From UHGV virus genome UHGV-0021788: a stretch of 64,000 nt of DNA; one strand, written 5' to 3'. The position numbers and the translations under genes were made by a program. Each line of letters opens with the position of its first letter. Within the stretch, counting starts at the first letter, position 1. Below are positions 16,324-61,396 of the stretch, in pieces. This DNA is from a virus. The notes below the pieces were generated by a model. The model was given only the letters and a program-made list of their open reading frames with translations, was not told the DNA's origin and made no database searches.

Positions 16324-16595
16324 TGATTTGCCGTTTATATTAGAAATAATATAAATTATTAGAGGGCAAAATCGGTGAAGACTAAGTTTTTATAAATATG
16401 TTGATACCGAGATAACTTATTAGATTGCGAAAGGCTAATAAGTATTGTAGAGCATAGGAATTGAATAAATATAATATTCCCAAGAGTGCCCTCCATTCTA
16501 ACGTAAAAAGACGAGGATGAAAATATATGCCATACTGAGCTAGAATTGACTAGCTGATGAAAATGAGGGAAACCTCCAGAGCATAAGATAAAAAG
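16324..16595 (+). mobile_element. Intron-like element, class 2 (ORF-less, about 270 nt), inside the TMP gene.
   Basis: Noncoding in all frames. It shares attgccgt...attagaggg...atcggtgaag.ctaagt...ataccgag...tctaacgt.aaa...tgaaaatatatgc...ataaaaaG with the element at 17397-17750. The flanking exon ends are similar (gaagc.at.g.tggtaat). Confidence 0.55.
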
Positions 16596-17750: not shown

Positions 17751-20700
17751 CTCCACGATAACAAATCGAAAACCCAAGCCGGTGTATTCCAAGCATTGAT
17801 GACAGGTTGGGAAAGAGTTCGTCAATTCCAAAAAGAATACAATGAAGGTTGGATGATAGGTTCAGCCCAAAGAGAAAATGAAATCTTTATGGATTCCATT
17901 GCTGGTAAAATGAATACTTTAAAAGAAAATCTTAAAGGATTATTAACTAGCAATGTTACAACAGATATGTTTAAAGGTCTATTAGATGGTGCTAATAAAG
18001 TAGTAGAAGCAGTAGGAAAAATAAGTTCAAGCTTAGGTAAAATTGGTTCAGCTGGTGCTTTAGTAGGTATTTCATCTTTCGTAAAAACTTTAGCAAATTT
18101 GGATAAAGCTAAAACAATAGGTGGTGGTTTTACAGGATTTGATAAAGTTTTAGAAGTAATACAAGGTACTGCTGTTACTTCTTCTGGTGAAATAAAAACA
18201 CTAGGCGATAGTTTTAAAGAATTAGGTGTTAAGACAACTCTATCTAAAGTAGCATTAGGATTATTTAAAGGTGTATTAATGGGTATTGCATTTACTGCTG
18301 TTGTTAAAGGAATAGATGCTATGGTAAAAGCATGGGATAATTATATTCATGCAACAGAAAATGCAGTAAAGGCTTCTAAGGAAAGACAAGATGGATTTAG
18401 AGATGAAGCACAAACATTAAGTACTAAAAAATCAAGTCTACAAGAAATAGCTAAAGAATATGATAATTTAAATAATAAATCTGATAAAACTGCTGAAGAT
18501 TTAACTAGATTAAATGAATTAAAACAACAAATAGGACAAATAGCTCCTGACCTTGTTAAAGGATATGATTCAGCAGGTAATCCAATATTAAATCTTACTA
18601 CTAGTATGCAAGGTTATATAGCTGAATTAGATAAAGCAATTGCTAAACAACGAGAATTATATAATTATGAAACTAAAAAACAAGCACAAGAATACATGAA
18701 GAAAAATGACACTAAAAATGGTGCTCAAGACCCAGATAGGAATTCTTATGAAACTGAATTAAATCATCTTCAAAATGCAAATGATAGAAAAACTAGAGAA
18801 GAAAAAAGATATACTGGTAGCTTAAAAAATATTATTAAAGATAGAAATAAATATAGAGAAGACCAAGAAAAAAGCATTAATGAAAGATTAGAAAGGATTA
18901 GAAACGCACAAACAGAAGTTAATAATAGAGATGCTACAATTGAAGATAATTATGTTAACGAATTTAATAAGAAAACCAAATTAGCTGAAAAAGAACAAAA
19001 TAAATTTGCTACCTTTATGAAAGGGTTAAATTGGGGTACTTATGGCGAAGCAGAAGCCAATAGAATGTCTAAAGGTTTACAAAAATTATCTGAAAAGACT
19101 GCATTCACAACTCAAGAGATGACAAAAGGATTATCAGGTAGTCTATCAAAAAAAGTTTCAGAAGAAATTTCTAAAGTAAATGCAGAATTCAAAAAAACAA
19201 ATGCTGTAAATGAATGGGGAAAAGGTTTAAGAAAAATAGCTAATGAAACAGGAAAATTTGATTTTTCAAATTGGAGTAATTACTTATCAGAAGTTCAAAC
19301 TCGTTTTGAACAAGGAGTAAGTACTAATGAACAATATACACATTCATTAGGAATTATGGCTGATGCTATGGAAGATTTAACTGGTATAGATTCAGATGTA
19401 TTCTTACCAGCTTTAAAAGGTGGAGCAGATTTAGAAGAAGCCTTTAAATCAGCAACTGAAGGCTTAAATGGTTTTATGAGTGCTTATGGTTCTTCTACTG
19501 CAAAATTACAACAAGGTGATTCATTTGCTAAAAAATTAGAATCTCAATTTAAAGAACTTCAAAATTTTGAAACTGAATTTGAAGGTCAATATGAGATGCA
19601 AGGTAAAGTTAGTGTAGATTGGTTAGTAGAACAAAAAGATAATGAAGATTTACCTAAGCAATTAAGAACTATAATAGATGCAGTAACAAAAGATGGAGAA
19701 GTAACAGAAGTAGAAGAAAAATTAGTATTAGCTTGTGAAACAGAAATAAAAGATAAAGGTAAATTAGAACAAAGCACAATAGATGCAATAAATCAAGTTA
19801 TGGATGGAACATGGGATGTAAATAAAACTATTGAAATAGGTGGTATGGAATTTACATCATCTGAAATAAGAGAATTAATGTCATTGGCAGACCAATTAGG
19901 TATATCTTTAGAAGGTTTAAATATTGGTGATACAGGATTAGAAGGAGAAAATCAAAAAGCTCAAGCATTAAAAGATACAATAGATTCAATTACAGATAGA
20001 GATATAAAAGTAGCAATAGAAGCAGAAGGATTTGAGAATTCAGACCAAGTTAACAACATAATGACAGTTATTGACCAAATAGATGGAAAACAAGCCAAAG
20101 TCGATTTTATAGCAGATGCTTCTCAATACTTTATGGAAAATGATAGTGTTGAATCAGCAATAAAAGCTATGCCTGATGAAATAAAACTTAAATATAATAT
20201 TGGTGTTGAAGGCGATGAAAGACTAGAAGGAATACAAAGTAGACTTGAAAAATTACCAAAAGATATTAGAACTATGGTATATGCTCAAACATATGGTGTT
20301 GAAAATGTTGAAATGCTAGAAAACATAGTAGATGCTTTTGGTGGAAAAACTGCAACAGCAATATTACAGTTAGATGGTATAGATGAAGCTCTTAGAAATG
20401 CTAGTACATTTGAGGAACAATTAAAAATAATTGGAGATTTTATATGTCAACCTGGAGTAGAAATAGAAGGTAAAGATGACATAATTAAAACAATTGATGA
20501 AATATTAAAGAAATTAAAAGAAACAGATGAAAAAGAAAGTAATCCTAAAATAAATGTAGAAGGAGATACTTCTGGTGCAGAGAAAGTAGAAAAAGAAGTA
20601 GACAATGTAGGCAATAAAAAAGGTACTGCTAAAGCAGATGTGGATGGAGATACTTCTGGTGCAGAGAAAGTAGAAAAAGAAGTAGACAATGTAGATGGTA

Positions 20701-23700
20701 AAGAAGGTACTGCTAAGACAAAAATAGAAGGAGATACTTCTGGAGCTGAAAAAGTAAAGAAAGAAGTAGATAATTTAGCTGTCAACAAAAAAGGTACGGT
20801 TACTTTATTAGTAAATGGTCAAGAAAAAATAGCTGAAGCTAAAGTTGTCAAAGGTCAATTAGAAGTAGATGGTAAAGCAGTTACAAGTATTTCTGTTAAT
20901 GGTAAAGACCAATTACCAATAGCTATTAATGAAAAAGGTCAATTAGAAGTAAATGGTCAAGCTATAACTGATGTAACTGTAAAAAATGGAGACCAATTAA
21001 AATTAACAAGAAATGAAAAAGGTCAATTAGAAGTAAATGGTCAAGCTATAACTGATATCAAGGTATATGGGAAAGAAAATGTTAAAGATGCAAAAAAAGA
21101 TGTTGATGATTTAACCAAAGATAATAAAAATGTTAGTATTAACATTGATGTTTCATTAAAAGAAACTGTTGGTGAAATATTATCAAGATTTGGATTAAAT
21201 AAGAAAACAGAAAATGTTGAAATTAATGTAACATGTAATGATAATGCAACTCCAGTATTAGAAAAAATAATGGCAAGACAAGATAAAACTATACAAATAA
21301 AAGTAGACTGCCAAGATAATGCAACATCTAAAATAAACAGTATAGCTAAAATAGGAAATAAAACTGTAACAGTTACAATAAATTGTCAAGATAATGCAAC
21401 ATCTAAAATAAACAGTATAGCTAGTATGGGTAATAAATCTGTAACAGTTACAATAAATTGTCAAGATAATGCAAGTTCTACAATAAATAGAGTTACAAGT
21501 GCACCTTCTTCTAAAGCAATAAATGTTGTAGTAACTTGTACAAATGGTGGAGCAGTTCTTAATACTCTTTCTCAATTAGCTAGTAAAGTAATACCTAGTA
21601 AAAAATTTACTATAAACTGTACAGATAGTGCTAGTAGTGTAGTAAGTAGAGTTAATGGTTTAAAAATATCTGATAAGAAATTTACTATAAATTGTACAGA
21701 TAATGCAACTGCTAAAATAAATAAAGTTATTAGTAAAAAAATACCAAATAAATCATTTACTATAAGTTGTACTGATAATGCTAGTAGTAAATTAAGTAGT
21801 ATTATAAGTAAAATAAGTAATATTCGTAGTAAATCAGTAACAATTACTACTAATCATGTAAGCACAGGCGACCATTCATCTGTTGGTGAACCAACAATTG
21901 TTGATTTACAACCTCAACCATTTAGTAGTACTCAAGCTTCTAATCCTCAAGTGCAATCATTAGGAGAACAAGTTCAAGTATTAAGCGATAGTGTGCAACA
22001 ACAAACTGACAACAATAATGAAGTTAGCGTAATGGCTAAGAAAACATATAAAGCTAATATTGATACAGGTTTAACAGTAAGTGCAGTTAAATATAATATT
22101 GATTTATTAACTAACATGACTAATATGCTTAAAAAATTAGGAACTCAAGTTGATATATTAAAAGCTAAACAAGAAAGAACTTGGGGTACTGCAAGTGCTA
22201 AGTTACTTAGAAATCAAATTTCTTTACTAACTAAACAACAAGATTTAACTAAAATAAATATTAAAAACATGGAAGGTATGGCTAAAAAACTTAAAGGTAG
22301 TTTACAAAAACAAGGATTTAAGTTTAAAGATGATGGAACTATAAGTAATTACAATAGTAAGCTTATAAAAATGCAAAAAAATGTTGAAAGTTTAGAGAAA
22401 GCTGAAAAAGCACTAGAAGACCAAATAAGTAAAACTGAAAAACAAATTTCAAAATCTGAAAAGAAATCTTCAAGTAAGAAGAAATCAACTAGTAAGAAAA
22501 AGAAAAGTACTAGTAAGAAAAAGAGTACGAGCAAAAAGAAGAAAACTTCAAGCAAGAAGAAATCAACTAAGAAAAAGAGCACTAAGAAGAAAACTACTAA
22601 GAAGAAGAGTGCTAGTAGAAGCAATAGAAAAACTACATCAAGTAAAGCTAGTAAAAAGAAGACTACTAAGAAGAAAAAATCAACTAGTAAGAAAAAAAGT
22701 ACATCAACTAAGAAGAAGAGTACTAAAAAGAGTACTAAAAAGAAGACTACTTCTAAGAAGAAATCAACCACTAAGAAGAAAAGTACATCTTCAAGCAAGA
22801 AATCAAAAGCAACTAAAGCATTAGAAAAGAAAAAGAGCGGATTAGAAAAGAAAAAGGATGCAATAAGCAAACAATTAGAAAAAGCACAAAAAGAATTATC
22901 AGAAACTCAAAGCAAATTAAATGAATATTATAATTTACAATTTAGTGAAATTCCTGAAGCTCAACAACAATGGGAAGAATATGCTAATGCTATAGCAGAA
23001 GCTAAGGCAGAAATAATTAGATGTGAATTAGAAGCTAAAACATTCTTTAAGACAGTTAAGATGGAAATGAAAGATGCTATGATTAGCAGAAATGAAACTT
23101 GGGCAGATACATTTATGTTGAAGGCTGATTTAAGTAGTTGGTCTAAAGCAATAGGATATATTAAAGAAGCTAATAAATTATTAGCAAAAAATCAACAACA
23201 TCAACAATCAAAATTAGAAACAGCTCAAGCAAGAGCAGAAGATAACAAGGCATTTTTAAAGAAACAAGGATTTAAATTTGATAAAAATGGATATGTAACA
23301 GGTGCTGAAAAAACTTTACAAAAACTTAAAAAGAAGAAATCATCACAAGAATATGATGCTATAAAAGAAGCATTTGATAGTTATGTTGATGATATGTATG
23401 AAAATATTCCCAAAGCTGAAAATGAATGGTGGAAATTAGAACAGGAAATAAAAGAAAATGAAAGACAAATAAAAGAAACTACTAAATCTATGAATGATTT
23501 AGTTAATTCAGCTAAAGTAGATAAATTAACTAGACAATTTGATGTACTTTCAAATACTTTAGATATATTAGACCTTAAAATGGAACGTGCTTATGGAGCT
23601 AATAAAATAGACTATATGAAACAACAACTTGATATATTATCTAATATGAAAAGTAAGAATCAAGAAATCATTAATCAAAATACTGAGTTATTAAATAATA

Positions 23701-24611
23701 GTAAGAAACAATTAGTTAAATATGGCATTACATTTGATGAAGATGGCAATATAGACAATCTATCAAAAGCATTGAAAAAATTAGATAATCTACAAGATAT
23801 GGAAGATTTAAAAGATTTAGCTGATGAATATAATGATTATAAAGATTCAATAGATGATGCTAGTAAATCAATTGAAGAAGAAACTAATAAACAACTTGAA
23901 TTAAAAGATTCAATGATGGAAATTAGAGAAGAAATGAGAAAACTTAGAGATGATGCATGGGTTAAAACTTATGAAAATGGTCTAAAAGTTATTCAAAATC
24001 GTATTGATACAATAGATTCTTTATTAGATTTAGAAGATGAAAATCAATTTAGTTTACTAAATCAAAAAATTGAAGAATATAAGAATTTAACTAAAGCGAC
24101 TGAGGATAGTTTGGCTTATCAAAAACATAGAAAAATCACTATGCAAAAAACATTGATTGATTATGGTTTCACTATTAATGATGATGGTACAATAGATGGA
24201 ACTGCTAATAAATTAGAACAACTTAAAAATACATTATCTGAAACTGAATTTGGTATAGTAAGTGATACATTAGAAGATTATTTTGATACTGCTTTAGATA
24301 CAATTCCTGAATTAGAAAGAGAATTAATAAAATATCAAAAAGATTTAAAAGATATACAAAATACTAAACTAGAAAAGACTAAAACTATTGAAGAAAAAAT
24401 TACTGAAATATATAACGATGAAATAGATAAAAGAACTAAAAAGATACAAGAAGAAGCAGAAGCACAAACTAAAGCACTTAATAAAGCCAAAGAATCTTAT
24501 CAGAGATGGAGAGACGAAGTTGACTATAAAGATGATTATAATAAACAATTAAAAACTGTTGAAGATTTACAAAAGAAAATAGAAATAGCAAAACGAGATG
24601 ACAGCCTAACT
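17751..24611 (+). CDS. Tail tape measure protein, exon 4. It contains hydrophobic segments, tandem peptide repeats and a lysine/serine/threonine basic tract.
   Basis: Continuous frame from 17748 to 24611. Internal tandem repeats lie at about 20560-20775, 20826-21065 and 21306-21500. The lysine/serine/threonine tract lies at about 22456-22815. Confidence 0.65.
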
Positions 24612-24825
24612 GGGTAATGTTGCCCTAGTCGTAAAGTAATTTGCGACTGAAAATAGATTTAATTGCAGGTAATCCCTAAAGCTCTACACCACAATATATC
24701 TGAAAAGAATATATGAAGGTACGAAAGTAGAAAAAACGTAGAGATTCTCATATGGTTAAATCCTAAGTGAGAGTAACAATGGGTGTTCATGCAAGGAAGA
24801 TTCTAAATTAAATTATTTTAAATAT

Positions 24826-24877: not shown

Positions 24878-26002
24878 ATGAAAACTAAGTGGACAAAAGA
24901 AGCAATAATAAAATATATAGAGGAACAAGATTATATTTTTATAAATTTTATAAAATTTGATAAATTAAGCTCAAGAATATTAATAAGATGTAATAATAAA
25001 AAGCATAAACCATATGAAGTTACTTTTGCTAATTTCAAAACTGGGAAAAGATGTCCAAAATGCAGTGAAATAAAAAGAAGAAAAAAAAGAACAATATGGA
25101 ATAAAGAAAAAATAATTGATTTTGTAGAAGATAATAACTATGAATTTATTGAATTTGTTAAATTTGATAAAATTGAAAGTATAATTAAGGTATGGTGTAA
25201 AAATTTAAAACATGAACCATATAATGTTAAATTTGCAAATTTTAAAAATGGACAAAGATGTAGAAAATGTTCTGATGAAATAAAAAGTAAAAAATTTTCG
25301 CATAATTATGAATATGTCAAAGAATATATTGAATCATTTGGATATAAAATGTTATCAAACGAATATATAAATTTACATAGCGAAATAAAAATATTATGTG
25401 ACAAACATGGGATATATAAGACAACATTTCAATTATTTAAAATGGCGAAATATAAATGCCCAAAGTGTTCGGATGAACATAGAGGAGAATATCATAAATT
25501 AAATTATGAATATATTAAAGAATATATTGAATCATTTGGATATGAAATATTATCAAATGAATATATAAATATGAAAACAAATATATTGGTAAAGTGTCCA
25601 AATGGTCATAAATCATATTTTACTAATTTTGATAGGTTTAAAAGAGGAGACAGATGCCCTTATTGTAACGAATCTAAAGGTGAGAAAAAAATTAATGAGA
25701 TTTTAAATAAATATAATATGAATTTTAAATCACAATATAAATTTAATAATTGTAAAAGTAAAAGAGAATTACCATTTGATTTTTATATATCTGATTTAAA
25801 TATAGCGATAGAATATGATGGAATACAGCATTATAAAATAATAGAATATTTTAGTGGACTTGATGGTTTCATAACCACTAAAATACATGATGTTATAAAA
25901 ACAAGATATTGTGAAGATAATAATATAAAATTAATTAGAATACCGTATTGGGAATATGATGATATAGAAAGTATATTAATAAAAGAACTTAATTTAAAAT
26001 AA
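24878..26002 (+). CDS. Intron-encoded homing endonuclease with four Zn-ribbon modules and a Vsr-like/DUF559 domain.
   Basis: Repeated W.K..II.F.E...Y.FI.F.K......I...C modules, with CPKC repeated three times. The C-terminal part reads LPFDFYISDLNIAIEYDGIQH..IKLIRIPYWEY. Confidence 0.75.
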   Translation: MKTKWTKEAIIKYIEEQDYIFINFIKFDKLSSRILIRCNNKKHKPYEVTFANFKTGKRCPKCSEIKRRKKRTIWNKEKIIDFVEDNNYEFIEFVKFDKIESIIKVWCKNLKHEPYNVKFANFKNGQRCRKCSDEIKSKKFSHNYEYVKEYIESFGYKMLSNEYINLHSEIKILCDKHGIYKTTFQLFKMAKYKCPKCSDEHRGEYHKLNYEYIKEYIESFGYEILSNEYINMKTNILVKCPNGHKSYFTNFDRFKRGDRCPYCNESKGEKKINEILNKYNMNFKSQYKFNNCKSKRELPFDFYISDLNIAIEYDGIQHYKIIEYFSGLDGFITTKIHDVIKTRYCEDNNIKLIRIPYWEYDDIESILIKELNLK

Positions 26003-48702: not shown

Positions 48703-49975
48703 TTGGATATATTGGAAACTATTAAGAAAAGTGCATTTCAAGAAATTGGTATTCTTAATGATAATGATTATTTTGATATAGTTACTAATACAAATGTTAA
48801 TAGAAGAATTAAATTTTCAGCAATGAAAGAAGCTATAAATAATAGTGTTAATTCTTATGTCGATGTTAAAGCAAAAAATGGAAAAATTTTCAGATTAACT
48901 GTTAATAATGAAGGGGAAATAATTTGTCAAAATGCTGAAGCATATACTGCTACTGCTCCAGAAAAAACTGAAAGTGGTAGATTTGCTGGTTTAATGATAA
49001 ACATGATATATGGTGGTGGAAATAATAAAAATAATACTGCTTGTTCACATCACTTTATAGAATTATATAATCAAAGTACTAGTAGTATGGATTTAAATTT
49101 AAAAGGACTTTATTTATCTGTTAAAAGTAATACAGGTGATTGGCAATCTCTTGCATTAGAGGGTATAATACCTTATCAACATTCATTCCTTGTAAGATGT
49201 AATCAAGTTTCTAATCCTGTACTATTAGGTACTAGATGTAAAATAGATACATATGACCAAGAATGGAATATAGATTTAACTGATGTAGGATTTAGTGCTT
49301 ATTTATCAATAGGAACACCTACAACTGTTAATCCAGCTAATGCAGATGGTAATATGAATAAAGAAGTTGGATATATAGACTTAATGGGTGCTGGTGGAAC
49401 ACAAGAAACACAAGGAGTTAAAGCTTTTGAAACTGCCTATCCAATGTTGATGACTAAAGATATAGGTTGTAGAAGACTTGACTTTGCTGATACAGATAAT
49501 AATCAAAAAAACTGTAGAGCAATAAATTGGAAAACTTGTGATGTAAGTGTCTATAAACCTAGAAGTGTATCAGATGGTAAATGGGACTTATACTTTAACA
49601 AAGCAAAACTAAAATCTACAATGCCTAATCTAATAAATATGTGTTATGGACAAGATGGTTCTAAAACTAGAACATTTACTTTCCAAACTGTATTAACTGA
49701 TGAAGGTTATATTAAATGGAGAAAATACGGAGAATTAAAATGGAATAAAAAACCTACTACTAAAGAAATAATAACTCACTATGATTGTGATGCTACTTTA
49801 CATAGAGTTTTTATTACTGATTTACAACCTGGAATTTATGAATATCAATGTGGTTCTGAAGGTGCATGGAGTGATATAAGTACTTTTGAAGTAAGAAATT
49901 ATGCACAAACTGCTGATAAAAGTAATTTTGTACATAACGATATAAAAATGTTATGGACTACAGACCAACAAGCAT
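48703..49975 (+). CDS. Purple-acid-phosphatase-like metallophosphoesterase tail protein, exon 1 (N-terminal domain plus the PAP N-domain).
   Basis: HRVFITDLQPGIYEYQCGSEGAWSDISTFEV matches the Pur_ac_phosph_N pattern. The real start is possibly the TTG at 48712. The frame is interrupted by the intron at 49976. Confidence 0.5.
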
Positions 49976-50194
49976 GGACTAACATATAGTCCCTATATTA
50001 AGTGATTAGTATAGTAAATCCTTTGAATTGCTGGTAAATCCTAAAGCCTTATAAACTACAACATGATTAGAAATAATGAGTGTGAATGTTACGAAAGTAG
50101 AAAAAATTATAAGGATAACATATGGTTAAATCCTAAGTGTTATATACAATGGAAGCTCAGCAGGTAAGATTCTAAATTAAATTATTTTAAATAC

Positions 50195-50223
50195 TTGACT
50201 TTTAATAAGATAAATTGTATAAT
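50195..50223 (+). promoter_or_regulatory. Intron-internal promoter for the HEG: TTGACT-17-TATAAT.
   Basis: Consensus -35 and -10 elements with a 17-nt spacer, followed by a GTGAGGTGA RBS. Confidence 0.55.
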
Positions 50224-50245
50224 ATAAGTAAAGTGAGGTGATAAA

Positions 50246-51160
50246 ATGGGAAGAAAGAAAACACATGAGGAATTTATGAAAGAGTTTTATGAAAAAAATC
50301 CTAATGCTAAAAATATAGAAATATTAGGAAAATATGAAGGTAGAAAAGTAAAAATTTTATGTATGTGTAAAATAGATAACTATAAATGGCATACAACTCC
50401 TAATGGATTATTGGGAAGTAAAAATATTAAACCAAATGGATGTCCGAAATGTGCTGGAAAAATAAAAAAAACACATAAACAATTTATAGAAGAAATGAAT
50501 GAAATAAATCCAAATATTAAAATATTGGGGCGTTACATAGATGCTAAAACTAAGATAGAATGTGAATGTAAAATAGATGGATATAAATGGGAAGTTGAAC
50601 CAACTAATTTGCTACAGAAAAGAGGATGTCCAAAATGTGCTAATAAAATACCTAGAGAACATGATGATTTTGTTAAAGAATTAAATAACATCAATCCTAA
50701 TATAAAAATAATAGGTAAATTTATATCTACTAGAACTAAAATAGAATGTGAATGTAAAATAGATGGATATAAATGGGAAGCTGAGCCAAGACATCTTTTA
50801 GGAAATCATGGATGTCCAAAATGTAATGATTCTATTGGAGAAAAAATAACTTATAATATATTAAATAAATTAAATATAAAAAATATAAGACAATACAAAT
50901 TTAAAGATTGTAAATTTTATAAATGTCTTCCTTTTGATTTTTATTTGCCACAATATAATTGTTGTATTGAAATTGATGGTAAGCAACATGAGAATATAGT
51001 CAAATGGTTTGGTGGGTTAGATGGTTTTATAGATAGAAAAATTAGAGATACGGTTAAAGATATATATTGTAAGAATAATGGAATAAAATTAATTAGAATT
51101 ACATATAAAGATATAAATGAAATAGAAAAAATAATTTGTCAAGAACTTAATTTAAATTAA
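50246..51160 (+). CDS. Intron-encoded homing endonuclease with three Zn-ribbon modules and a Vsr-like/DUF559 domain.
   Basis: CPKC repeated three times. The C-terminal part reads LPFDFYLPQYNCCIEIDGKQH..IKLIRITYKDI. Confidence 0.75.
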   Translation: MGRKKTHEEFMKEFYEKNPNAKNIEILGKYEGRKVKILCMCKIDNYKWHTTPNGLLGSKNIKPNGCPKCAGKIKKTHKQFIEEMNEINPNIKILGRYIDAKTKIECECKIDGYKWEVEPTNLLQKRGCPKCANKIPREHDDFVKELNNINPNIKIIGKFISTRTKIECECKIDGYKWEAEPRHLLGNHGCPKCNDSIGEKITYNILNKLNIKNIRQYKFKDCKFYKCLPFDFYLPQYNCCIEIDGKQHENIVKWFGGLDGFIDRKIRDTVKDIYCKNNGIKLIRITYKDINEIEKIICQELNLN

Positions 51161-51319
51161 TTTAATATGAATAAACTTCAACGACTAAGTATCCTAGTAG
51201 TCTAGGTAGTGGAGGATACCCTTATTGGGTAATGATATAGTCTGCTCTCATGGGAAACCATGAGCAGTTTTTATGTAAAAAAACGGATAGAATAGTAACG
51301 ATATTCTATTGAACATAAG

Positions 51320-52155
51320 GTGTTGAGGAATCACAAGCTACTAATGTTTGTTTCCAAAATATAAGTGAATGGGAAAAAGGTACTGATTTTGATTTTCATT
51401 TAAATACAGGCGACATTTCGCAAAATGCAAACAGAAGTTTTGAGTGGAGATACCACTATAAATATGCAGATGACCTAATAAGAACTATGTGTCATCAAAT
51501 AACTTGTGGGAATAATGACTTAATAGATAAGAAATATTCAGATGCATTTACATGGTACATGACACCAGAAGATTATTTCTTACCAGACCAAATAGATAGT
51601 GGTTCAGGTGTTATGGTTAATAATCCTAATAAATGTACTTTTAATTCATGTCATAGTTTTGACTTAGGATATGTACATTTTGTTTGTTTAAATAGTAATA
51701 AAGATTATTCTATGTTTAATGAAAATGAAGGTGAAAAAATAGATGATTGGATACAAAGAGAATGTGCATGGTTAGATGCAGATTTAACTAGAGATGAATC
51801 TAATGCTAAAACAAGATGGGTAATATGTTATATGCATTACGCACCTTTTACAGTATCTAGACCTGACTGGATACAAAGATTTGTTCCTGTATTTGAAAAA
51901 CATAGAGTACATTTAGTATTATGTGGTCACAACCATACAAACTCAAGAAGTATTGTAGTTAGAAGTGGTTATGATGGAGACCCAAATAAAGCAAGCTATG
52001 ACCCTAAAGGTCAAAAAACAGCTGAAGAAGAAACAGCTTTAGGACATGGTACTATAAATCATAATGAAGATTTAAAAAATGGTACTCTTTACCTAATGAT
52101 TAATGCAACTGGATTCAAGAATACAGGTAAAGAAAGTATACAAAATCCTTATCCT
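51320..52155 (+). CDS. Metallophosphoesterase catalytic domain, exon 2.
   Basis: GDISQNA, the GNHE-like LCGHNHTN (GHxH) and YMHYAPF are calcineurin-like phosphoesterase motifs. The frame opens at 51319. Confidence 0.55.
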
Positions 52156-52332
52156 TGGTAAAAAAATATTGCCACTTTACATAGTAATATGTAATGACAA
52201 ACTCATTGAATTGCTGGGACGACCTTAGAGCCTTAATGCCACAATATAAGAGAAATCATTATATGAAGGTTTAAAAAGTTTAAGGATTGGTTAATCAGCA
52301 GGTAAGATTCTAAATTAAATTATTTTAAATAC

Positions 52333-52361
52333 TTGACTTTTAATAAGATAAATTGTATAAT
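52333..52361 (+). promoter_or_regulatory. Intron-internal promoter for the HEG: TTGACT-17-TATAAT.
   Basis: Identical to the cassette at 50195-50223. Confidence 0.55.
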
Positions 52362-52384
52362 ATAAGTAGAGTGAGGTGATAAAT

Positions 52385-53299
52385 ATGGGTAAAAAGAAAA
52401 CACATGAGGAATTTATGAAAGAGTTTTATGAAAAAAATCCTAATGCTAAAAATATAGAAATATTAGGAAAATATGAAGGAAACAATAAACCTATTAAATG
52501 TCGTTGCAGAATAGATGAATACGAATGGTATCCAAGACCTTGTCATTTATTGGGAAATAAAAATGCTAAACCTACTGGTTGTCCTAAGTGTAGTGGAAAA
52601 GCAAAAAGAACAAATGAAGAGTTTATTAAGGAAATATATATAATAAACCCTAATATAGAAATACTTAGTGAATATAGTGGAGTTAGTAATTTAATAGATT
52701 GTCGTTGTAAAATAGATGATTATGAGTGGTCATCAATTGCTGATAATTTATTACATGGACATGGTTGTCCTAAATGTGGAGGACAAATAAAAAAGGAACA
52801 TGAAGAGTTTGTAAAAGAAATGGAAGAAATAAATCCCAATATAGAAATACTTGGGGAATACAATGGAGTTCATGAATATATTTTATGTGGATGTAAAATA
52901 TGTAATCATGAATGGACAACTCGTCCTCATGAATTATTAAATGAATACGGATGTCCTTCTTGTAATATATCTCGAGGAGAATTTAAAATAAAAACTTTAT
53001 TAGAAAAATATCAAAAACAATATAAATATCAATATAAATTTAAAGATTGTAAATTTTATAATGAATTACCTTTTGATTTTTATTTACCTGATTATAATAT
53101 TGCAATAGAATATGATGGAGAACAGCATTATAAAATAATTAAACAATTTGGTGGAATAAATAGATTAATAGATAGTAAAATAAGGGATACTGTTAAAACT
53201 GAATATTGTAAAAATAATAACATAAAACTTATAAGAATACCTTATTGGAATTATAAAGATATAGAAAATATACTTATAAAAGAACTTAATTTAAAATAA
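52385..53299 (+). CDS. Intron-encoded homing endonuclease with a Zn ribbon and a Vsr-like/DUF559 domain.
   Basis: CPKCSG, CPKCGG and CPSC motifs. LPFDFYLPDYNIAIEYDGEQH..IKLIRIPYWNY. The ATG at 52385 follows a GTGAGGTGA RBS. Confidence 0.75.
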   Translation: MGKKKTHEEFMKEFYEKNPNAKNIEILGKYEGNNKPIKCRCRIDEYEWYPRPCHLLGNKNAKPTGCPKCSGKAKRTNEEFIKEIYIINPNIEILSEYSGVSNLIDCRCKIDDYEWSSIADNLLHGHGCPKCGGQIKKEHEEFVKEMEEINPNIEILGEYNGVHEYILCGCKICNHEWTTRPHELLNEYGCPSCNISRGEFKIKTLLEKYQKQYKYQYKFKDCKFYNELPFDFYLPDYNIAIEYDGEQHYKIIKQFGGINRLIDSKIRDTVKTEYCKNNNIKLIRIPYWNYKDIENILIKELNLK

Positions 53300-53475
53300 T
53301 TTAACATGAATAAACTTCAACGACTATCCTGTAATGGAGTAGGGTTCAAGCGAACTCGAAGTAGTGAGCATCTTAATAAAGATGAAGATATAGTCTAGTC
53401 TCATGGGAAACCATGAGCAGTTTTTGTGCGTAAAAACAAAACGGGTTAGGTGTAGCGAACCTAATTGAATATAAC

Positions 53476-53690
53476 GGGTATGGATTAAGAACTTCACATC
53501 CAACACAACCAACTTATGCAACATTAACTATAGGTTGGGATAAGATAGAATATAAATGCTATAAGATAATGAACACATTAAGTAAAGATAGAAACGGAAA
53601 TACAATAGTAGTGCCTTATGGTAGTCAAACTAAAGAATTGTATGATAGTTGTACTCTTAATTGGAGAGCAAAAGGTCAAACACTAATATA
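53476..53690 (+). CDS. Metallophosphoesterase, exon 3 (C-terminal, about 71 aa).
   Basis: The frame is open from 53434 to the TAG at 53688-53690. It joins exon 2 at a codon boundary (..NPYP/GYGLRTSHPTQ..). Confidence 0.4.
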
Positions 53691-53704
53691 GGTGGTGATA
53701 GTTT

Positions 53705-56377
53705 ATGCCTAATAGAATTTGGAGTGAAGAAAAAAAAGATTGGATAATAGTCGATGAAACAAATTTAGCTACAAATATAGAAGTAATGGATATCAAAGAG
53801 TACTATCATAAAAAGAAAACAGAAGAAGAAACAAAAGATGATGAATTTTTAAGTGTTGAAAAATGCTTAGAACAAATAGGGGATAAAATAAATAATGGTG
53901 ATATAGGTGCTATAGGTGAAATAAAAGATAAAGTACAAGATTTGGATGACAGAGTAACCTATATTGAAGAAAACGGTGGTGGTGGAGGAGGTGGCTCTTC
54001 CATGCCTACCGTTAAACTTCTTAGTGATAGTTATTATGCTATACCAACCGATGGAGAATTAAATATTTATTATAACTTTACTTCTCCAAATATAGGATTT
54101 GGTACAGCATTTATAAGTTTAGACTATGGAACAGCTGAACAGTTATCAGTTGCACAAGGTCGTAATTTTTATACTGTAAAAAACTTAGAAAAAGGTGAAC
54201 ATAGACTAGATATATATGTAACTGATATAACAGGTTTATTCTCGAATACAGTTACAGTAACAATAGTTGTTGGTGGACTTGAATTAACTTCTAATTTTGA
54301 CGATAGTACGGATTTATCCTTAGAGGATTATATTAGAATAAGATATGTTATCTCAACAATATCTTCTAAGCCAATTGAAGTGTCTATTGAAATAGATGGT
54401 AAACTAACAAAAGCAGAAGGTATAATTGGTCAAAATATATTGGAAGTTGGACAGTTTAGTTCATTAGGGGTTCATACAGTTAAAATATCAGCCGTCAGTG
54501 GTGATTTAGTATCAAACCAATTAGTATTTAATTTAGTTGTAGCCGATTCAGAAAATCTTTATGTATCTACTACTTTTCCTGATAATTATACTATACAAGT
54601 AGGTAAAAACCTACAAATTGATTATAGAAATAGTATGGTAAATCAAAATAGATTTATTACTCATATGCTTATAAATGGTACTGAAGTAGATACGGTAACA
54701 TCTTATTCAGGATATAACTATTGGAACGTTGGGTCTAATTTAGAGATAGGTTTATATACTTTAACATTATATTCTACTACATCCGATGGTGCATATACAT
54801 CAAATTATTTAACATGGGTAATAGATGTTGTTTCAGAAGACTATGTTCCCTTTAAGGTTGTAACAGATGGGTTATTATGTAATTTTGATGCTAATGGTAA
54901 TCAACAAACATCTTCTAGTAGAAACATATGGAAAGACGATAGTGGAAACGACGTTAAATGTGAATTGTTTAATTTCAACTATTCTACAAATGGTTGGATA
55001 GATAACAGTTTAGTATTTAATGGTAAAACATATGCTAAAATAGATTTTTCTCCTTTTAGTGATAATATCAAAAATGGTATGACAATTGATATGTTATTTA
55101 AAGTAAAAAATGTTGGTGATATAGACGGAAAAGTATTATGGTGTAAAAATCCAATTACACCTTACCAAGGTTTTTATATAAATACTTATGAGGCAAATTG
55201 TCGTTCTGCCAACTCAAGAATAGTTAGTAACCAATTTCAAGATGACACATGGACTAGAATAACATGGGTTATTAATAGAGAAGATTTGACAATGATAGCT
55301 TATGTAAATGGTATCATAACGAAACCTGTATATATAACAGATACAGAAAACTTTAGAATGGAAAAAGATATTTATCTAGGTGTATCATTTGACGAAGTAG
55401 ATAACAATTTAGATAATGATGGTAATCCAATACCTCACTATGCATCTTGTTCTATAAAAACATTTAGAATATATGATAGAGCATTAACTGATGAAGAAAT
55501 ATTACAAAATCATATTGCCGATATAAAAGATAAAGAAAAACAATTGGAAATAAGAGAAAAGAACTATGGTGATAGTACAATGCCTATCATAAAATTTGAA
55601 GGTAATGTAGAAGGTATGGATGGTAGTATCTATAAATTATTAACAATAGATTATAATGACCCATTAGACCCATCTAAACGTTTTAGACAAGAACAATGTA
55701 GAGTAAAATGGCAAGGTACTTCTTCACTAGAATATCCAGTAAAAAACTATACAATAGAACTTAGAAGTGGTGGTAACGTTTGGGAATATGCTCCTAAAGA
55801 CAATTGGCTACCAGAAAAAAGATATACTTTGAAGGCTTCGTTTATGGATAGTTCTACATATAATAACGTTGGTTCTTCTAAATTAATTTATGATTACTTT
55901 AGAAAATCTAATATGTTTTATCCACAAGAAATTAAAAATCCTAAAACTAGAGCAGTAATAGATGGTTTCCCAGTTAGACTTTATATTAATGGGGAATCAA
56001 AAGGTATATATATGTTCAATATAGATAGATATGCTGAAAACAATTATGGATTTTCTGGGGAATCATCAATTGTATCTTATGAAATAGCTGTCAACTCTGA
56101 AAGTGGTGCTGGTGCTTTCGCATCAGATGCTTGGTCAAGTATACGTTCTGAATTTGAAATGAGATATCATTATGCTGGAGATGAAAGTGTTGTATGTGAA
56201 ACTGTTATGGAAAATGGTGTACCAACTACTGTTTTAAAAGCAGGTTTTCATTCAGAATTACAAAATTTAGTTTCATGGGTATTAAATTCTACTATAGAAG
56301 AGTTTAGAAGTGAATTAAAAGAACATTTTGAATTAAACTTTTTAATAGATTATTATCTATGGGTTCTATGTTTGGGT
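53705..56377 (+). CDS. Giant host-interaction protein, exon 1: a Gly-rich linker, Ig-like region, LamG (ConA-like) domain and the N-terminal part of a CotH-like domain.
   Basis: LamG-like NSLVFNGKTYAKIDFSP...TWTRITWVINRED..AYVNG. CotH-like KRYTLKASFMDSSTYNNVGSSKLIYDYF...VRLYINGESKGIYMFNIDRY. The RBS resembles that at 47598. Confidence 0.55.
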
Positions 56378-56469
56378 TAATACAATGGCTCAAGTAAAAC
56401 TTTCTCTGATTAATGGCGAACACCCTAGTAGAAAAGGGCAACGCTCAAGAAGATTTATTTAACAATATT

Positions 56470-56498
56470 TTGACTTTTAATAAAATAAGTAGTATAAT
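56470..56498 (+). promoter_or_regulatory. Intron-internal promoter for the GIY-YIG HEG: TTGACT-17-TATAAT.
   Basis: The same cassette (ttgacttttaataaaataagtagtataatataa) as the Vsr-like HEGs. Confidence 0.5.
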
Positions 56499-56519
56499 AT
56501 AAATGAAAGGGGTGATACT

Positions 56520-57230
56520 ATGAGTGAAAATAAATATTATGTTTATGAATGGATTAGATTAGACACAAATGAACCATTTTATGTAGGTAAAGGTTGTGGA
56601 GATAGATGGAGGAATTTATATAGGGATTACAATCCTCGTTTTATGAATATAATAAATAAAGTACCAGTAGCAGTATCAATATTAATAAATAATTTAACAG
56701 AAAAGGAATCTTTTGATTTTGAATGTTATTATATATGGTTATATAAAGATATTATAGGATATGATATATGCAATATAAATGAAGGTGGGGAAGGTCAAAG
56801 TTTATGTGGTGAAGCTAATGGTTTTTATGGTAAACATCATTCAGAAGAAACTAAAAAATTATTAAGTGAACAACATAAAGGCATGACTTATTCTCAAGAG
56901 ACAAAAAATAAATTGAGTGCTATGAGAAAAGGTGAAGGGAACGCTATGTGGGGACGTAGAGGAGAATTATCTCCGCATTGGGGTAAAAAATATTCAGAAG
57001 AAAGAAAAAATAATATTAGTAAAGCAATGGGTACTTCTGTAAAGTGTATTGAATTAAATATAGAATTTAATAGTCTTAATAAAGCAGAAAAATATATGAT
57101 TAAAGAATATGATATTAAATTTTCTCATAAAACTTTAAAAGCTACGATAGAAAAAAGAAGAAAAAAAGATTGGTATGGAGAAATAGAAATTAATGGAGAA
57201 TTAATTAAACTTCATTGGGAATATTGTTAA
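56520..57230 (+). CDS. GIY-YIG homing endonuclease with NUMOD3 repeats (I-TevI-like).
   Basis: YVYEWIRLDTNEPFYVGKGCGDRW (the GIY-YIG motif). Repeated GKHHSEETKKKLS / SQETKNKLS / SEERKNNIS (NUMOD3). Confidence 0.75.
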   Translation: MSENKYYVYEWIRLDTNEPFYVGKGCGDRWRNLYRDYNPRFMNIINKVPVAVSILINNLTEKESFDFECYYIWLYKDIIGYDICNINEGGEGQSLCGEANGFYGKHHSEETKKLLSEQHKGMTYSQETKNKLSAMRKGEGNAMWGRRGELSPHWGKKYSEERKNNISKAMGTSVKCIELNIEFNSLNKAEKYMIKEYDIKFSHKTLKATIEKRRKKDWYGEIEINGELIKLHWEYC

Positions 57231-57446
57231 ATAAAATCACTTGCAACGACTGAGTGAGAAAGGCTTAAAGATTAATTCTTTAAGTAAGCAACAGTCTGAA
57301 CTTGCGAATATAATTTCTACAAAAAACAAATCGCAGAAGAGGGGTCATCGGTAATCAGACCGATTAAAGAAGAACCCCTCTCGCCAACTTAGGTTGGTCA
57401 GTAGCCGAAAGGTGAAAGTAACAGAATGCTAGTAGACAACTTGGGT

Positions 57447-57691
57447 TTAATGATTTTGGCTCAAGTATAAAATTCTCTCTGATTAATGGCGAACACCCTA
57501 GTAGAAAAGGGCAACGCTCAGGAAGATTTATAAAATCACCTGCAACGACTGAGTGAGAGAACACTTATTTAAGTGAAGCAACAGTCTGAACTGCAAATAT
57601 AATTTCTACAATAACAAATTGCAGAAGGAAGTTGAAGTGCTTCCTCGCCAACTCAAGTTGGTCAGTAACCGAAAGGTGAAAGTAACAGAAT
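57447..57691 (+). mobile_element. Intron-like element, class 3, ORF-less. It is a tandem near-copy of the preceding element without the endonuclease.
   Basis: The 5' and 3' blocks are near-identical to 56388-56460 and 57345-57424. A putative mini-exon of about 19-22 nt lies at 57428-57446. Confidence 0.45.
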
Positions 57692-57745
57692 TGAAAAATA
57701 TGGTTTTAACAACTTTCGGTATGAATGCTGAAGGTAACGTAATTT
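57692..57745 (+). CDS. Putative short CotH exon (LKNMVLTTFGMNAEGNVI).
   Basis: This frame is open only here. The peptide continues a CotH-like core when joined to WYDADSELG of the next exon. Confidence 0.35.
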
Positions 57746-58001
57746 GGTATCCATCCTTTGACATAGGAGGATGTAAAACTCTCTTTAATTGACTTGGAAG
57801 TCCTGAAGAGGACGACAGGGGGCAAGTTTAAATACAGCCTGAACGACTAAACAAGAGAGCATTATCATATTGATAATGATGTGATAGTCTGAACTCTAGT
57901 AATAACTTGTTTTAATGAAACTAGAGAAGGAAATCCGAAGTGTTTTCCTCGCCATAAAATATTATGGTCAGTAGCTTAGGAATAAGTGAAAGTAACAGAA
58001 T
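57746..58001 (+). mobile_element. Intron-like element, class 3, a divergent third copy, ORF-less.
   Basis: It has the same 3' terminus (cctcgcca....gtcagta.c...gtgaaagtaacagaa) and an analogous 5' block (gtaaaactctctttaattgacttgg). A tggtat repeat occurs at both junctions. Confidence 0.45.
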
Positions 58002-61000
58002 GGTATGATGCAGACTCAGAGTTGGGTTTAACCAACGATGGTGAGTTAAGATACGGTTCAGGTATCGACACTTTAACAGATAATTTCAATACTTCTGATT
58101 CTAAATTATGGACTAAATTACTAGAAGCTTTCCCAGATGAAGTACAAGCAAGATATATCTATATGAGAAGTAATGGATTTATGACTTATGAAAATATTAT
58201 AAAATATTATGAAAATATAGCAGATACAATTGGTCAAACATTCTATAATGAAGATGCAAGACTTAAATATATTAATGAAGATAATAAATCATTTATTTAT
58301 ATGTGTAATGGTTCAAGACTTGAACATACAAAAAGATGGTTAAGCGAACGTATTGTATATATGGATAGTAAATTTAACTATGGTGATTTCTTATTATCTT
58401 CTACTATACGTTCAAATGTTTCCGGTGAGGTATCATTAAAAGTAAAAACATATTCACCTCAATGGGTAGAAATATCTTTCTCAGATAGTGCTACAGGTAC
58501 AACAAGACAATGGTGTAGTAAAGATAAATGGTATACATTTATAAATACCATTGAAAATGCCGTCGACAACAATATCACCATTAGAGGTGTAACTAATATA
58601 ATGTATTTACAAGGATTAGAAAATTTAAATGTATCTTCTTTACTTGTATCAAATGCAAAAGGTTTATGTGAAATTGATATTCATGGTTCTAAACGTATTC
58701 AAAGATTGGAACTAGGTAACAATATCATGTTACAAAAACTTAATTGTAAAGATTGTATTAATTTAGGTATTGATGATAACTATAAAGTTGTTAACTTGGA
58801 AAAATGTATCAACTTAAAATATCTTGATTTATCTAATACTATGATAGGTACACTTCAATTAAATAAAGATGGTGGTGCATTAGAATATTTAGATTTATCT
58901 GAAACAGAATTAACTTATTTAACTTGTAACCATCAAGAATATTTACCTGAAATAAAATTAGATGGTTGTAAAAATCTATCATCTGTTACTATTAATGGTT
59001 GTAATGCATTAACAAGATTGAGTTTACCTAATACTAAATTAGCTGAATTTACTGTAACAGATTGTAATAGTTTAAATTACCTTGATATATCATATACTGG
59101 TTATTTAGTAAAATTAGATTTAACAGGTTGTAGTAGTTTAACTACTTTAATAATGTCAGGTATAGCAAATAATAAATTTACTGAATTAGATGCGAGAACA
59201 TTAACAAAATTAACAACATTAGATGTGTCTAAATGTTATTTCTTAAATAATATAAGATTTGCTAATGGATATAATGCTTTAACATCTGTAAACTTCCAAC
59301 AAAGTGGGATTAAGACTTTACAGTTTGGAAATAATGAAAAACCTCCTTATTTAGATTTATCTCCATTTAATTTAACAGAAGTTAATTTCTATAACTGTAC
59401 TGAAATAGAATATATTAAAAATATAAAATTATATGCTACAAAATCCATAGAACCTTTTTATAATTGTGTTAATTTACACACTATAGAAGGTACTATAAGT
59501 TTAACTGATGATTTAGGAAGAAGTTTTTATAATTGTAAAAAACTAGTTAATTTACCTACTTTAGATTTAAGTAGAGTTAAAACAGCTTCGGATTCCTTTA
59601 TGCATTGTGAGTCTTTAACTTATGACCAATTACTAGAAATTTTAGGTAAGATGAATAATTGTCAAAGTTTTTATAGAACTTTCCAAAACTGTTTAGCTAT
59701 GGAACATGACGGTTGGGAAAAAGCTTTATTCGATAAGATACCAAAAGCAACTTATTTTTATTGGACATTCTCAGATACTCCAATAAGCGGACAATTAGAG
59801 CAAGGAATCTTTGATAGTTTATTAGATTTACAAACTGTAGATGGATTATTTAGCGGTGGTAAGGCAAAAGGTTATATTCCAGCCAATCTATTCAAATATA
59901 ATACAAAATTACAAAATCTTTGGAATCTATTTAATGGATGTAAAGAATTAGAAACTGCTACTAATATAGTAAACATGTTTACCACTACAGTAGATTTAAG
60001 AGGTATAGAGGGATTATTTAGTGGTTGTACTAATGCTTTTATGAAACTAAGTGATACATGGTTTGCAAATTGTCCAGAGCTACAAAATATGGATTATGCT
60101 TTTGCAAATTGTACAAACTTAATTGGTTCTATAGCTGAAAATCCTCATATGATAAAAAATAAATCTAAATTAACAACAGCAGAACATACCTTCCTTAATT
60201 GTACAGGCATAAGTGGTGATTTACCTGATGATTATTTTGTTGGGTGTACTGCTTTACAAGAAATACAAGGACATTTTCAAGGATGTACTGGTCTAACAGG
60301 AACTCCTAAAACTGAATCATGGATAGATTGTGAAAATATAACTAATGCTTCATATTTATATGCAGGATGTACTGGTTTAGGTGGTATAGCAGGTGCTACT
60401 CAAGAAATACCTAAAGATTTCTATAAAAGAAAATATAGACTTATAGATATATCTGGTATGTGGCAAGGTTGTAATCAACTACAATTTTCTCTAATGCCAT
60501 TAAAAGAAGATAAGTTAGGTGAGGATGGAGCTGTTATAGAAAAAGGGGACGACCCTTGGTTTGTTGATTGTAGACAGTTAGCGAAAATAAATTATCTATT
60601 TGATGGTTGTAGTAATTTATCATCTGTAATACCTTCTAGGTTATTTGAAGTTTGGGATGAAAAAGGCGAAGTAATGGATACACTTATAACAGAAGCTAAA
60701 GCGGTATTTAAAAATTGTCAATTACTTACAGATGAAATACCAGAAAATCTATTTGAAAAATTTATTAAAGTTAGAGATTTAACTGAATTTTTCTATCAAT
60801 GTAGAAGTTTAACTGGTGGTATTCCTGATACATTATTTTCTAATTGTTATTCTTTAGTTTATGCTAATAGAATGTTTATGCGTTGTGGTAAATTAGGAAA
60901 ATATGCAGACCAAGTAACAGAAGAAGAGCCATATTTCTGTAATGAAGAACTATTTTGGAACTGTCCTAACCTATTGGAAATATCTCAATTATTCCATATG

Positions 61001-61396
61001 TATGATGGATGGGGAACTTCTCTAAGAGGAGACATACCTCCATTGTTATTTAGAGCTAATCCTAAATTACAAAATATAAATAATGCCTTTGCTGGTTGTA
61101 GTCTTTTAACTGGTGGGTTGGATGGGCAACTATTTGTTAGAAATGCTAAATTAAAAACTGCTAGAGAAACTTTCCACGGTTGCTCAGGTTTAAATGGAGA
61201 AATGAGTGGAGCGTTATTTACCTCTACTAATAATCCACTTTTAACAGATTTCTATCAAACCTTTCAAAATTGTAAAAATATACAAGGTACTGCACCTTCA
61301 TTATGGACACAATTCTCTAATGCAAATGGTGGAGGATGTTTTAATGGATGTACTAAATTAAGTAATTATGCAGATATACCTTCACAATGGAAATAA
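58002..61396 (+). CDS. Giant host-interaction protein, last exon: the CotH C-terminal part plus an extensive BspA-type leucine-rich repeat region.
   Basis: The frame is open from 57986. LRR_5-like repeats (F.gCt.L.g.i......f..C..L) run through about 59300-61300. A strong terminator follows. Confidence 0.55.

Follow-up and report, generated by a model that had tools for sequence, protein, structure and literature searches.

The analysed window, a stretch of 64,000 nucleotides (nt) of the virus genome UHGV-0021788, contains a predicted phage tail-protein or structural gene with a CotH kinase-like domain (53705–61396, plus strand), which, as its sequence is read here, is split by three introns into four exons. 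A long open reading frame (ORF) on the plus strand (53705–56380) stops at a TAA codon at 56378–56380, and is followed by an ORF of 236 amino acids (aa; 56520–57230) and then by another long ORF, read in the frame of 57986–61396. Three related non-coding elements, extending from 56378 to about 58002, lie between the two long ORFs, in agreement with an initial annotation that had recognised three related intervening elements in one long ORF, one of them with an ORF of its own. That annotation also held that the junctions break the U...G splice-site rule of group I introns. The elements are very probably three canonical group I introns, with borders at 56378–57428, 57447–57693 and 57759–58002, that belong to one widespread phage-associated family. 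The apparent rule-breaking arises because the borders were misdrawn; shifts of 1–13 bases restore U...G.

All features of the split gene are on the plus strand. Exon 1 of the CotH-domain gene (53705–56377, from ORF 53705–56380) ends in ...UGU UUG GGU, with U56377 as the 5′ splice-site U. Intron 1 (I1; 56378–57428) is a group I intron of 1051 nt that carries the endonuclease ORF in its P6 loop and ends in ...GUAACAGAAUG, its terminal guanosine (omega-G) being G57428. The mini-exon that follows, exon 2 (57429–57446), has the sequence CUAGUAGACAACUUGGGU and encodes LVDNLG, and its last 7 nt form the P1 helix of intron 2 (I2; 57447–57693). The latter is 247 nt long, has no ORF, ends in ...GUAACAGAAUUG with G57693 as omega-G, and has orthologues at the same site in two relatives, L001 and L002. 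Exon 3 (57694–57758), of 65 nt, encodes KNMVLTTFGMNAEGNVIWYPS plus 2 nt, and its last base is U57758. Intron 3 (I3; 57759–58002), a consensus-like family member of 244 nt that is likewise ORF-less, ends in ...GUAACAGAAUG with G58002 as omega-G. Exon 4 (58003–61396, in the ORF frame of 57986–61396) encodes the remainder of the CotH domain and a leucine-rich-repeat-like C-terminal part. The three introns have in common the blocks AAAAYUCUCU, AACGACU(A/G), (U/C)AGUCUGAAC, GGUCAGUA and GUGAAAGUAACAGAAU(U)G, the last of which occurs exactly three times in the window, and each ends with the G that closes ...GUAACAGAAU(U)G. The description of the second element as a tandem, ORF-less relative of the first stands: the cores of I1 and I2 are identical at 222 of 284 positions (78%), and both the guide GGCUCAAG and the 3′ tail are common to the two.

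Self-splicing of I1, I2 and I3, which we infer from their sequence, would yield a single protein of 2049 aa. The joins 56377/57428, 57446/57693 and 57758/58002 produce one uninterrupted ORF of this length, whose product reads ...DYYLWVLCLG-LVDNLG-KNMVLTTFGMNAEGNVIWYPS-L-YDADSELG..., that is, LCLG/LVDNLG/KNMVL...WYPS/LYDADS across the joins. The predicted ligated exons are ...UUGGGU^CUAGUAGACAACUUGGGU^AAAAAU... and ...CCAUCCUU^GUAUGAUG..., and peptides predicted for the spliced product are LCLGLVDNLGK and NVIWYPSLYDADSELGLTNDGELR. A protein search returned distant uninterrupted homologues, together with close relatives in which the called proteins break off or begin at the junctions. The 14 uninterrupted homologues read GL(V/I)DNxGKNMxLxT...WYPSLYDxD over all three sites, and when close intron-less alleles are included the consensus is GL(V/I)DN(L/F)GKNM...WYPS(L/F)YD(A/C/L)D. 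Judged from these proteins, the LVDNLG...WYPSLYDAD stretch is a conserved CotH motif. The Pfam CotH profile (PF08757) matches the spliced protein with an E-value of 5.9e-16 in a single stretch (profile positions 2–299 of 322) that covers all three junctions.

A scoring profile was built from the 14 uninterrupted homologues, with no window sequence included. The canonical model scores 309.7 bits against this profile, the model of the initial annotation 275.1 bits, and a form in which exon 2 is skipped 287.2 bits. When all in-frame borders within ±15 nt were scanned with the border nucleotides unconstrained, 56377/57428, 57446/57693 and 57758/58002 fell in the top-scoring set, the only ties being one-base slides with no effect on the encoded protein. 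The frame had been said to require introns ending in ...acagaaU; enumeration of all combinations near the six borders shows, on the contrary, that 264 U/...G combinations keep it open. The exon ends at U56377 and U57446 were placed correctly, as they are the 5′ sites of the canonical model too, and one alternative offered at the time, namely that the border model was wrong, is correct: the 3′ ends had been drawn 1–2 nt short, so that the second element ends at 57693 instead of 57691, and the third 5′ border was 13 nt early, exon 3 ending at 57758 instead of 57745. Likewise, a very short exon does lie between the first two elements, but it measures 18 nt (57429–57446) and not 19–22 nt.

The borders are further defined by three close relatives that differ in intron content. 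L380 (about 85% aa identity) is continuous at all three sites, and its DNA is collinear with the spliced window model codon for codon, with the same length across sites 1–3. L001 (84% aa identity) is continuous at site 1, with an ORF-less intron at site 2 and an intron at site 3, whereas L002 (82% aa identity) has an ORF-containing intron at site 2 and is continuous at sites 1 and 3. Collinearity with these three relatives, all of which lack an intron at site 1, fixes the length of I1 together with the border scan. A further relative, L003 (P0002, 46% identical), was considered as a case with a differently placed third intron and rejected, as its similarity is lost after VVWY, where a gene on the opposite strand follows. 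At this locus (1555–1711), the contig reads through sites 1 and 2; it is probably chimeric or truncated and was used for these two sites only.

The P1 helix was located in all three window introns and in four copies in the relatives, where it comprises 6–8 base pairs and ends in a U-G pair. In I1, the internal guide sequence GGCUCAAG (56387–56394, plus strand) pairs with the exon sequence UUUGGGU (56371–56377) through GCUCAAG, placing U56377 opposite G56388. The same guide strand pairs with CUUGGGU in I2 and in the intron of L002, while the site-2 intron of L001 combines CUCGGU with GCCGAG. For I3 the pairing is CAUCCUU/GAGGAUG, for its orthologue at site 3 of L001 it is CUUCCUU/GAGGAAG, and for the copy in L380 it is AGCCUGU/GCAGGCU. 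Exon and guide strands thus co-vary across the copies, with the final exon U opposite a G every time. In the splicing mechanism that we propose, this last exon U would form the wobble pair with the G of the guide. Since the P1 U-G pair and the general rule both favour it, U/...G was chosen over the one-base slide.

The remainder of the group I core would consist of P3–P8 with a P3/P7 pseudoknot, a P4–P6 domain and an extended P9 domain. P1, P3, P4–P6, P7 and P8 were located in I1. P3, P4, P5, P6, P7, P8 and a branched P9 domain were placed by hand, with the ORF of I1 in the P6 loop, and minimum-free-energy folds of I2 and I3 recover P1, P3–P6, P8 and the P9 domain. Covariation in P6 (CAAG/CUUG versus CAGG/CCUG) ruled out a different P4 (UGAUU/AAUCA) for I2. 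P7 is formed by GACU(A/G) and (U/C)AGUC, flanked by AAC...UGAAC; it is identical in the splice-mapped Twort introns, and we take it to correspond to the G-binding pair of Tetrahymena. The two P7 strands are separated by 3 nt, the 3′ strand of P3, a single hairpin (P8) and a J8/7 segment of 6 nt only. Subgroup IA2 introns (the T4/Twort type) carry extra helices, P7.1/P7.2, between the two P7 strands. No P7.1/P7.2 was found in the window introns, whereas Twort I2 has about 40 extra nt at this place. Because they lack this region, the window introns are not filed under IA2.

The fold was examined across the intron family. The 14-mer GTGAAAGTAACAGA alone proved unsuitable as a family probe, as it gave mostly chance matches, and a two-block pattern, GTCAGTA-N6-20-GTGAAAGTAACAG, was used instead. 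Among the matches listed, it is found in at least 120 viral contigs, in at least 120 metagenome contigs and in 54 genomes, the last ranging from Bacillota to Actinomycetes and to DPANN or Methanosarcinales archaeal bins; nhmmer identified 331 family matches in the fetched DNA. In 42 non-redundant compact members, collected with nhmmer, aligned with MAFFT and analysed by pair counting, 93.2% of the cells are paired in the proposed fold, compared with 67.9% in column shuffles and 39–47% when one strand is slid. Changes on both sides occur in 47 of the 54 pairs, those of the P3/P7 pseudoknot included. Each of the seven P3 pairs co-varies; in P7, the variable pair is AU in 22 members, GC in 12, UA in seven and CG in one.

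The tails that follow GUAACAG in 79 members are mostly AAUG, AAUUG, AGUG or AAAUG, and also AUUG or GAUG. Complete copies all end in G, and the spacing from GUAACAG to this G varies. The terminal G would thus be used 3–5 nt downstream of the invariant ...GUGAAAGUAACAG, whose CAG, by pairing with the CUG beside P7 in a P9.0-like helix, would present it to the guanosine site of P7. In RNAalifold and minimum-free-energy folds, the CAG at 57422–57424 of I1 (plus strand; its counterparts in I2 and I3 are 57686–57688 and 57996–57998) pairs with the CUG directly 3′ of P7 (57296–57298). The invariant acaG is therefore predicted to belong to a P9.0-like pairing and not to be omega-G. When omega-G is forced onto acaG and the 5′ sites of the initial annotation are kept, the two in-frame TAA codons that it had described are reproduced; for I1, acaG works as omega-G only with a 5′ site at a Watson–Crick position inside P1.

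Several observations weigh against the canonical borders or lessen their support. The protein comparison is blind to a one-base slide, G/...U and U/...G encoding the same or an equivalent protein. I1 has a second U...G option at 56373/57424, via acaG, that replaces Gly by Met and scores 309.5 bits; it is disfavoured by the Gly codon of close relatives and because U56373 is a Watson–Crick position within P1. For I3, a border at 57759/58003 is likewise canonical and gives Phe, as in L380. The P10 pairing of I1 is weak. The P9.0-like helix is beyond the reach of covariation, both of its strands being invariant in the family, partly since the search pattern required the motif. Finally, the Rfam classification that had been proposed as a check came out negative: the Intron_gpI model, RF00028, gave no match at the gathering threshold in the window and none at E ≤ 10 in 56200–58200, and neither of these scans reported a group I or group II match. 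RF00028 (Rfam 15, gathering threshold) gave no match either in L285, L127, L011, L184, L324, L364, L001 and L002, which hold at least 15 family members, while the three Twort introns, run as a positive control, were detected at 64–101 bits. Because the control works and the family as a whole is missed, the negative result is a limit of the model and not a defining biological feature, and it is not taken as evidence against the introns.

A different splicing outcome may accompany that of the canonical model, in that the 18-nt exon 2 would sometimes be skipped to give an in-frame product without LVDNLG. The guide GGCUCAAG is identical in I1 and I2, both UUUGGGU and CUUGGGU pair fully with it, and the two introns share both the UUGGGU target and the 3′ tail. 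There are reports of exon skipping for the near-identical introns of orf142 in Twort, and for tandem introns engineered to flank a 24-nt exon (PMC10136302; PMC11878797). However, the skipped form would lose a conserved Asp-Asn motif, scores 22 bits lower and is probably non-functional, and skipping is entertained here as a tentative possibility, with the odds against it. The substitutions D228Q and D251A inactivate CotH of Bacillus subtilis (PMC7821199). A spacing similar to that of D228 and D251 separates the Asp of LVDN from that of YDAD, and by position the Asp-Asn motif of exon 2 may lie in the catalytic loop; a Protein Data Bank (PDB) sequence search with the CotH region gave no match, which leaves this mapping inferred. 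If skipping does occur and this placement holds, the tail protein would be produced in an active form and in a catalytically dead one.

The exact position of I3 admits one alternative, 57760–58003, with U57759 as the exon end and G58003 as omega-G, whose product would read WYPS-F-YDADS. In its favour, each base of the UU can lie opposite GG in P1, a Phe codon (TTT) stands at this position in L380, the closest of the intron-less relatives, and the score is just 1.6 bits lower. By contrast, the UU/GG geometry recurs in I1 and I2, where an in-frame join with a terminal G is obtained from the first U alone; L002 has Leu at this position; and in the L001 orthologue of I3 the first U is the only one opposite a G. 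The tail of I3 at the preferred border, ...ACAGAAUG, is moreover that of I1. The shifted position is accordingly regarded as unlikely, and 57759–58002 is retained.

It had also been suggested that the gene is inactivated, decayed introns or insertions no longer splicing and translation stopping at the TAA at 56378–56380. The lack of endonuclease genes in I2 and I3 and the missing Rfam match would agree with this, but the core helices are all intact, the guides match the exons perfectly and the 1150 downstream codons are open and conserved. The orthologous introns of the relatives also keep compensatory changes in P1, which points to selection for splicing. As canonical splicing leaves the 2049-aa ORF uninterrupted, the gene is, by its sequence, not inactivated, and decay is highly improbable. 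Least credible of all are non-canonical introns ending in ...ACAGAAU (57427, 57691 and 58001) with exon ends at 56377, 57446 and 57745 and a 19-nt mini-exon: although this arrangement keeps the frame open, it translates the mini-exon in the wrong frame (ASRQLGL for LVDNLG) and removes YPSL (LCLG-ASRQLGL-KNMVL...NVIW-YDAD), scores 34.6 bits below the canonical model against the uninterrupted homologues, gives intron lengths (1050, 245 and 256) that are not collinear with the intron-less alleles, puts the third 5′ site outside the P1 helix, and runs contrary to the family tails, which vary in length ahead of a constant G. The first junction that it predicts, GGU^GCUAGUAG..., is hardly to be expected.

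The closest precedent for the canonical arrangement is orf142 of phage Twort, a tail tube gene in which Landthaler and Shub reportedly described three group I introns in 1999. As in the window, one phage structural gene is interrupted by three group I introns with short exons between them (AF132670). Its I2 and I3 are near-duplicates that follow an identical 5′ exon target, GUGCCU/UUA, and have ends of the form ...GUAACAUAAUUG (read from AF132670 as ...CGUAACAUAAUUG), comparable to I1 and I2 of the window. The R/S core blocks GCAACGACUA and AUAGUCUGAAC are common to the Twort and window introns, and when I2 of the window is aligned globally with that of Twort, the segments AAAAUC-CUCU, GAACA-CCUA, UGCAACGACU, AGUCUGAAC and GUAACA-AAUUG line up. 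Between P7 and P8, where P7.1/P7.2 are located in Twort, the window introns lack a stretch of about 40 nt; they also differ by their escape from RF00028 and by their context: a CotH-domain host gene, an 18-nt middle exon and one intron with an endonuclease gene. The exon between Twort I2 and I3 measures 40 nt in AF132670 (1322–1361, from the landmarks ...AUAAUUG/ and GUGCCU/) versus 23 nt in PMC10136302.

I1 also resembles the td intron of phage T4 (AF158101), which encodes I-TevI. The td borders UUGGGU/UAAUUG...CAUAAUG/CUACCG correspond to UUGGGU/UAAUAC...CAGAAUG/CUAGUA in I1, the exon junction is Leu-Gly/Leu in both (FLG/LPFN in td), and in both the endonuclease ORF lies in the P6 loop and is followed directly by AACGACU, the 5′ strand of P7. 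On the other hand, td has P2 and P7.1/P7.2, its host gene differs from that of the window, and the I1 endonuclease, set against I-TevI, has no significant match to the Pfam GIY-YIG profile. No overall nucleotide similarity to td was detected by blastn, and megablast and blastn searches of phage genomes yielded no informative match. The exon context of I1 (56371–56380 and 57425–57434) is near-identical to the td homing site CUUGGGU/CUACCG (L378, 19560–19575 and 18545–18560, minus strand).

Further parallels are found in other phage structural genes. Tape-measure genes of prophages of the Bacillus cereus group contain the group I introns IVS1–IVS3 (Tourasse & Kolsto 2008, PMC2504315), which are homologous introns at several sites of one gene with variable presence or absence. 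IVS1 and IVS2 have changed their P1 for different sites, whereas I1 and I2 keep one guide at look-alike UUGGGU sites. Tape-measure genes of Bacillota prophages (L364, L324 and L081) also contain introns of the window family; these are not equated with the published IVS loci. The capsid and tail introns of Cluster J mycobacteriophages (PMC3706429), likened here by description and not by sequence, are group I introns in virion structural genes and not in nucleotide-metabolism genes, although there is one per gene and the host phylum is different. The window introns are thus ordinary canonical group I introns, another case of a known type.

Intron occupancy in the CotH gene is highly polymorphic, in the pattern of mobile introns. 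Site 2 is filled in all three intron-bearing relatives, site 1 only in the window. A fourth, upstream site is occupied by a family member in L380 (8124–9294), corresponding to window position 55840/55841, and is empty in the window. In the close relatives P0006–P0013 (707-aa products), this fourth site, KA[C/S]/FMDSS, is filled by a family member that encodes a NUMOD3 endonuclease, and sites 1–3 are empty.

I2 and the site-2 intron of L002 have P6, P8 and 5′ features in common, I2 lacking the ORF and part of P9.1, and I1 is about 78–79% identical to both. Given this intron identity and the 37% identity of its endonuclease to that of the L002 intron, I1 is, on sequence grounds, a diverged paralogue and not a fresh duplicate. 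I1, carrying a homing endonuclease, is presumably mobile, and I2 and I3 are ORF-less derivatives. The same guide is found in I1 and I2, both of which follow UUGGGU 18 nt apart, which is compatible with insertion at a look-alike site, as P1 complementarity is all that reverse splicing requires (for the mechanism, see PMC2504315). A compound account would have the endonuclease-bearing I1 insert ectopically, perhaps through reverse splicing guided by no more than the 7-nt P1 match, at the look-alike UUGGGU 18 nt upstream of an ancestral site-2 intron, have the tandem pair alternatively splice out exon 2, and make the family a distinct, very widespread structural variant of phage group I introns, without P2 and P7.1/P7.2 and with an invariant GUGAAAGUAACAG tail, that RF00028 misses. 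All of these parts holding together is improbable.

The 236-aa ORF of I1 (56520–57230, plus strand) encodes a putative homing endonuclease that has NUMOD3 repeats and, at its N-terminus, a motif resembling GIY-YIG. It matches Pfam NUMOD3 (5e-12) and phrog_314, annotated as homing endonuclease (1e-18), and a weak match to TIGR01453 (E = 0.003) is below the cut-off. Endonuclease activity would be expected from these matches. The earlier designation as a GIY-YIG ORF holds as far as the homing-endonuclease assignment goes, but the GIY-YIG label itself reflects the visible motif of the N-terminus only (YVY-x9-YVGKG-x3-R), the Pfam GIY-YIG profile giving no match to the ORF at E ≤ 1. A PDB sequence search with the endonuclease returned no match.

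A promoter-like site, TTGACT-17-TATAAT, lies upstream of this ORF at 56470–56498 (plus strand) and agrees with the consensus at 11 of 12 positions, a consensus match only. Nearly the same promoter-like stretch, TTGACTTTTAATAA[A/G]ATAA...TATAAT, together with a Shine–Dalgarno sequence, also precedes the other intron endonuclease ORFs, at about 50196–50224 and at about 52333–52361, and it recurs in the intron of L002. From these sequences, the endonuclease genes seem to bring their own expression signals.

Two further putative group I introns, of the td/Twort-like type, occupy window positions 49990–51320 and 52161–53470. They have the R/S blocks AACGACUA...AUAUAGUCUG with an extra hairpin region between them, end in the tails ...UUGAACAUAAGG and ...UUGAAUAUAACGG, and each contains an endonuclease ORF of the phrog_559 type (50246–51160 and 52376–53299). 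The gene directly upstream of the CotH gene is split by them into ORF 48703–49989, about 51320–52161 and about 53470–53691. The 5′ strand of P7, AACGACU(A/G), recurs at 525, 4198, 9555, 16818 and 26022; copies directly follow the phrog_559 endonuclease ORFs 3261–4187, 8823–9536 and 24878–26002, and one lies inside the 1.4-kb gap between the giant ORFs 11192–16354 and 17796–24617. None of these other putative group I introns of the window was reported by Rfam. By sequence, the tail and structural genes in these 64 kb would hold about ten group I introns. Elsewhere, three to four introns of the same family as I1–I3 occur within 1.5–2 kb of one gene in L285 (2613–4603), L011 (820–2392), L127 (5980–7744) and L184 (3036–4728). 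The host gene in L285 resembles a major capsid protein, and that in L364, L324 and L081 is a tape-measure protein.

For the annotation of this genome, the region is read as one 2049-aa CotH-domain protein encoded by four exons, rather than as two ORFs and debris. It provides no evidence of an exception to the U...G splice-site rule of group I introns. A recurring trap in this intron family is that the conserved G of ...GUAACAG is predicted not to be omega-G, the terminal G lying 3–5 nt further. Multi-intron structural genes seem to be common for the family, and as Rfam Intron_gpI is blind to a family so widespread, intron-split phage structural genes are probably mis-annotated on a large scale.

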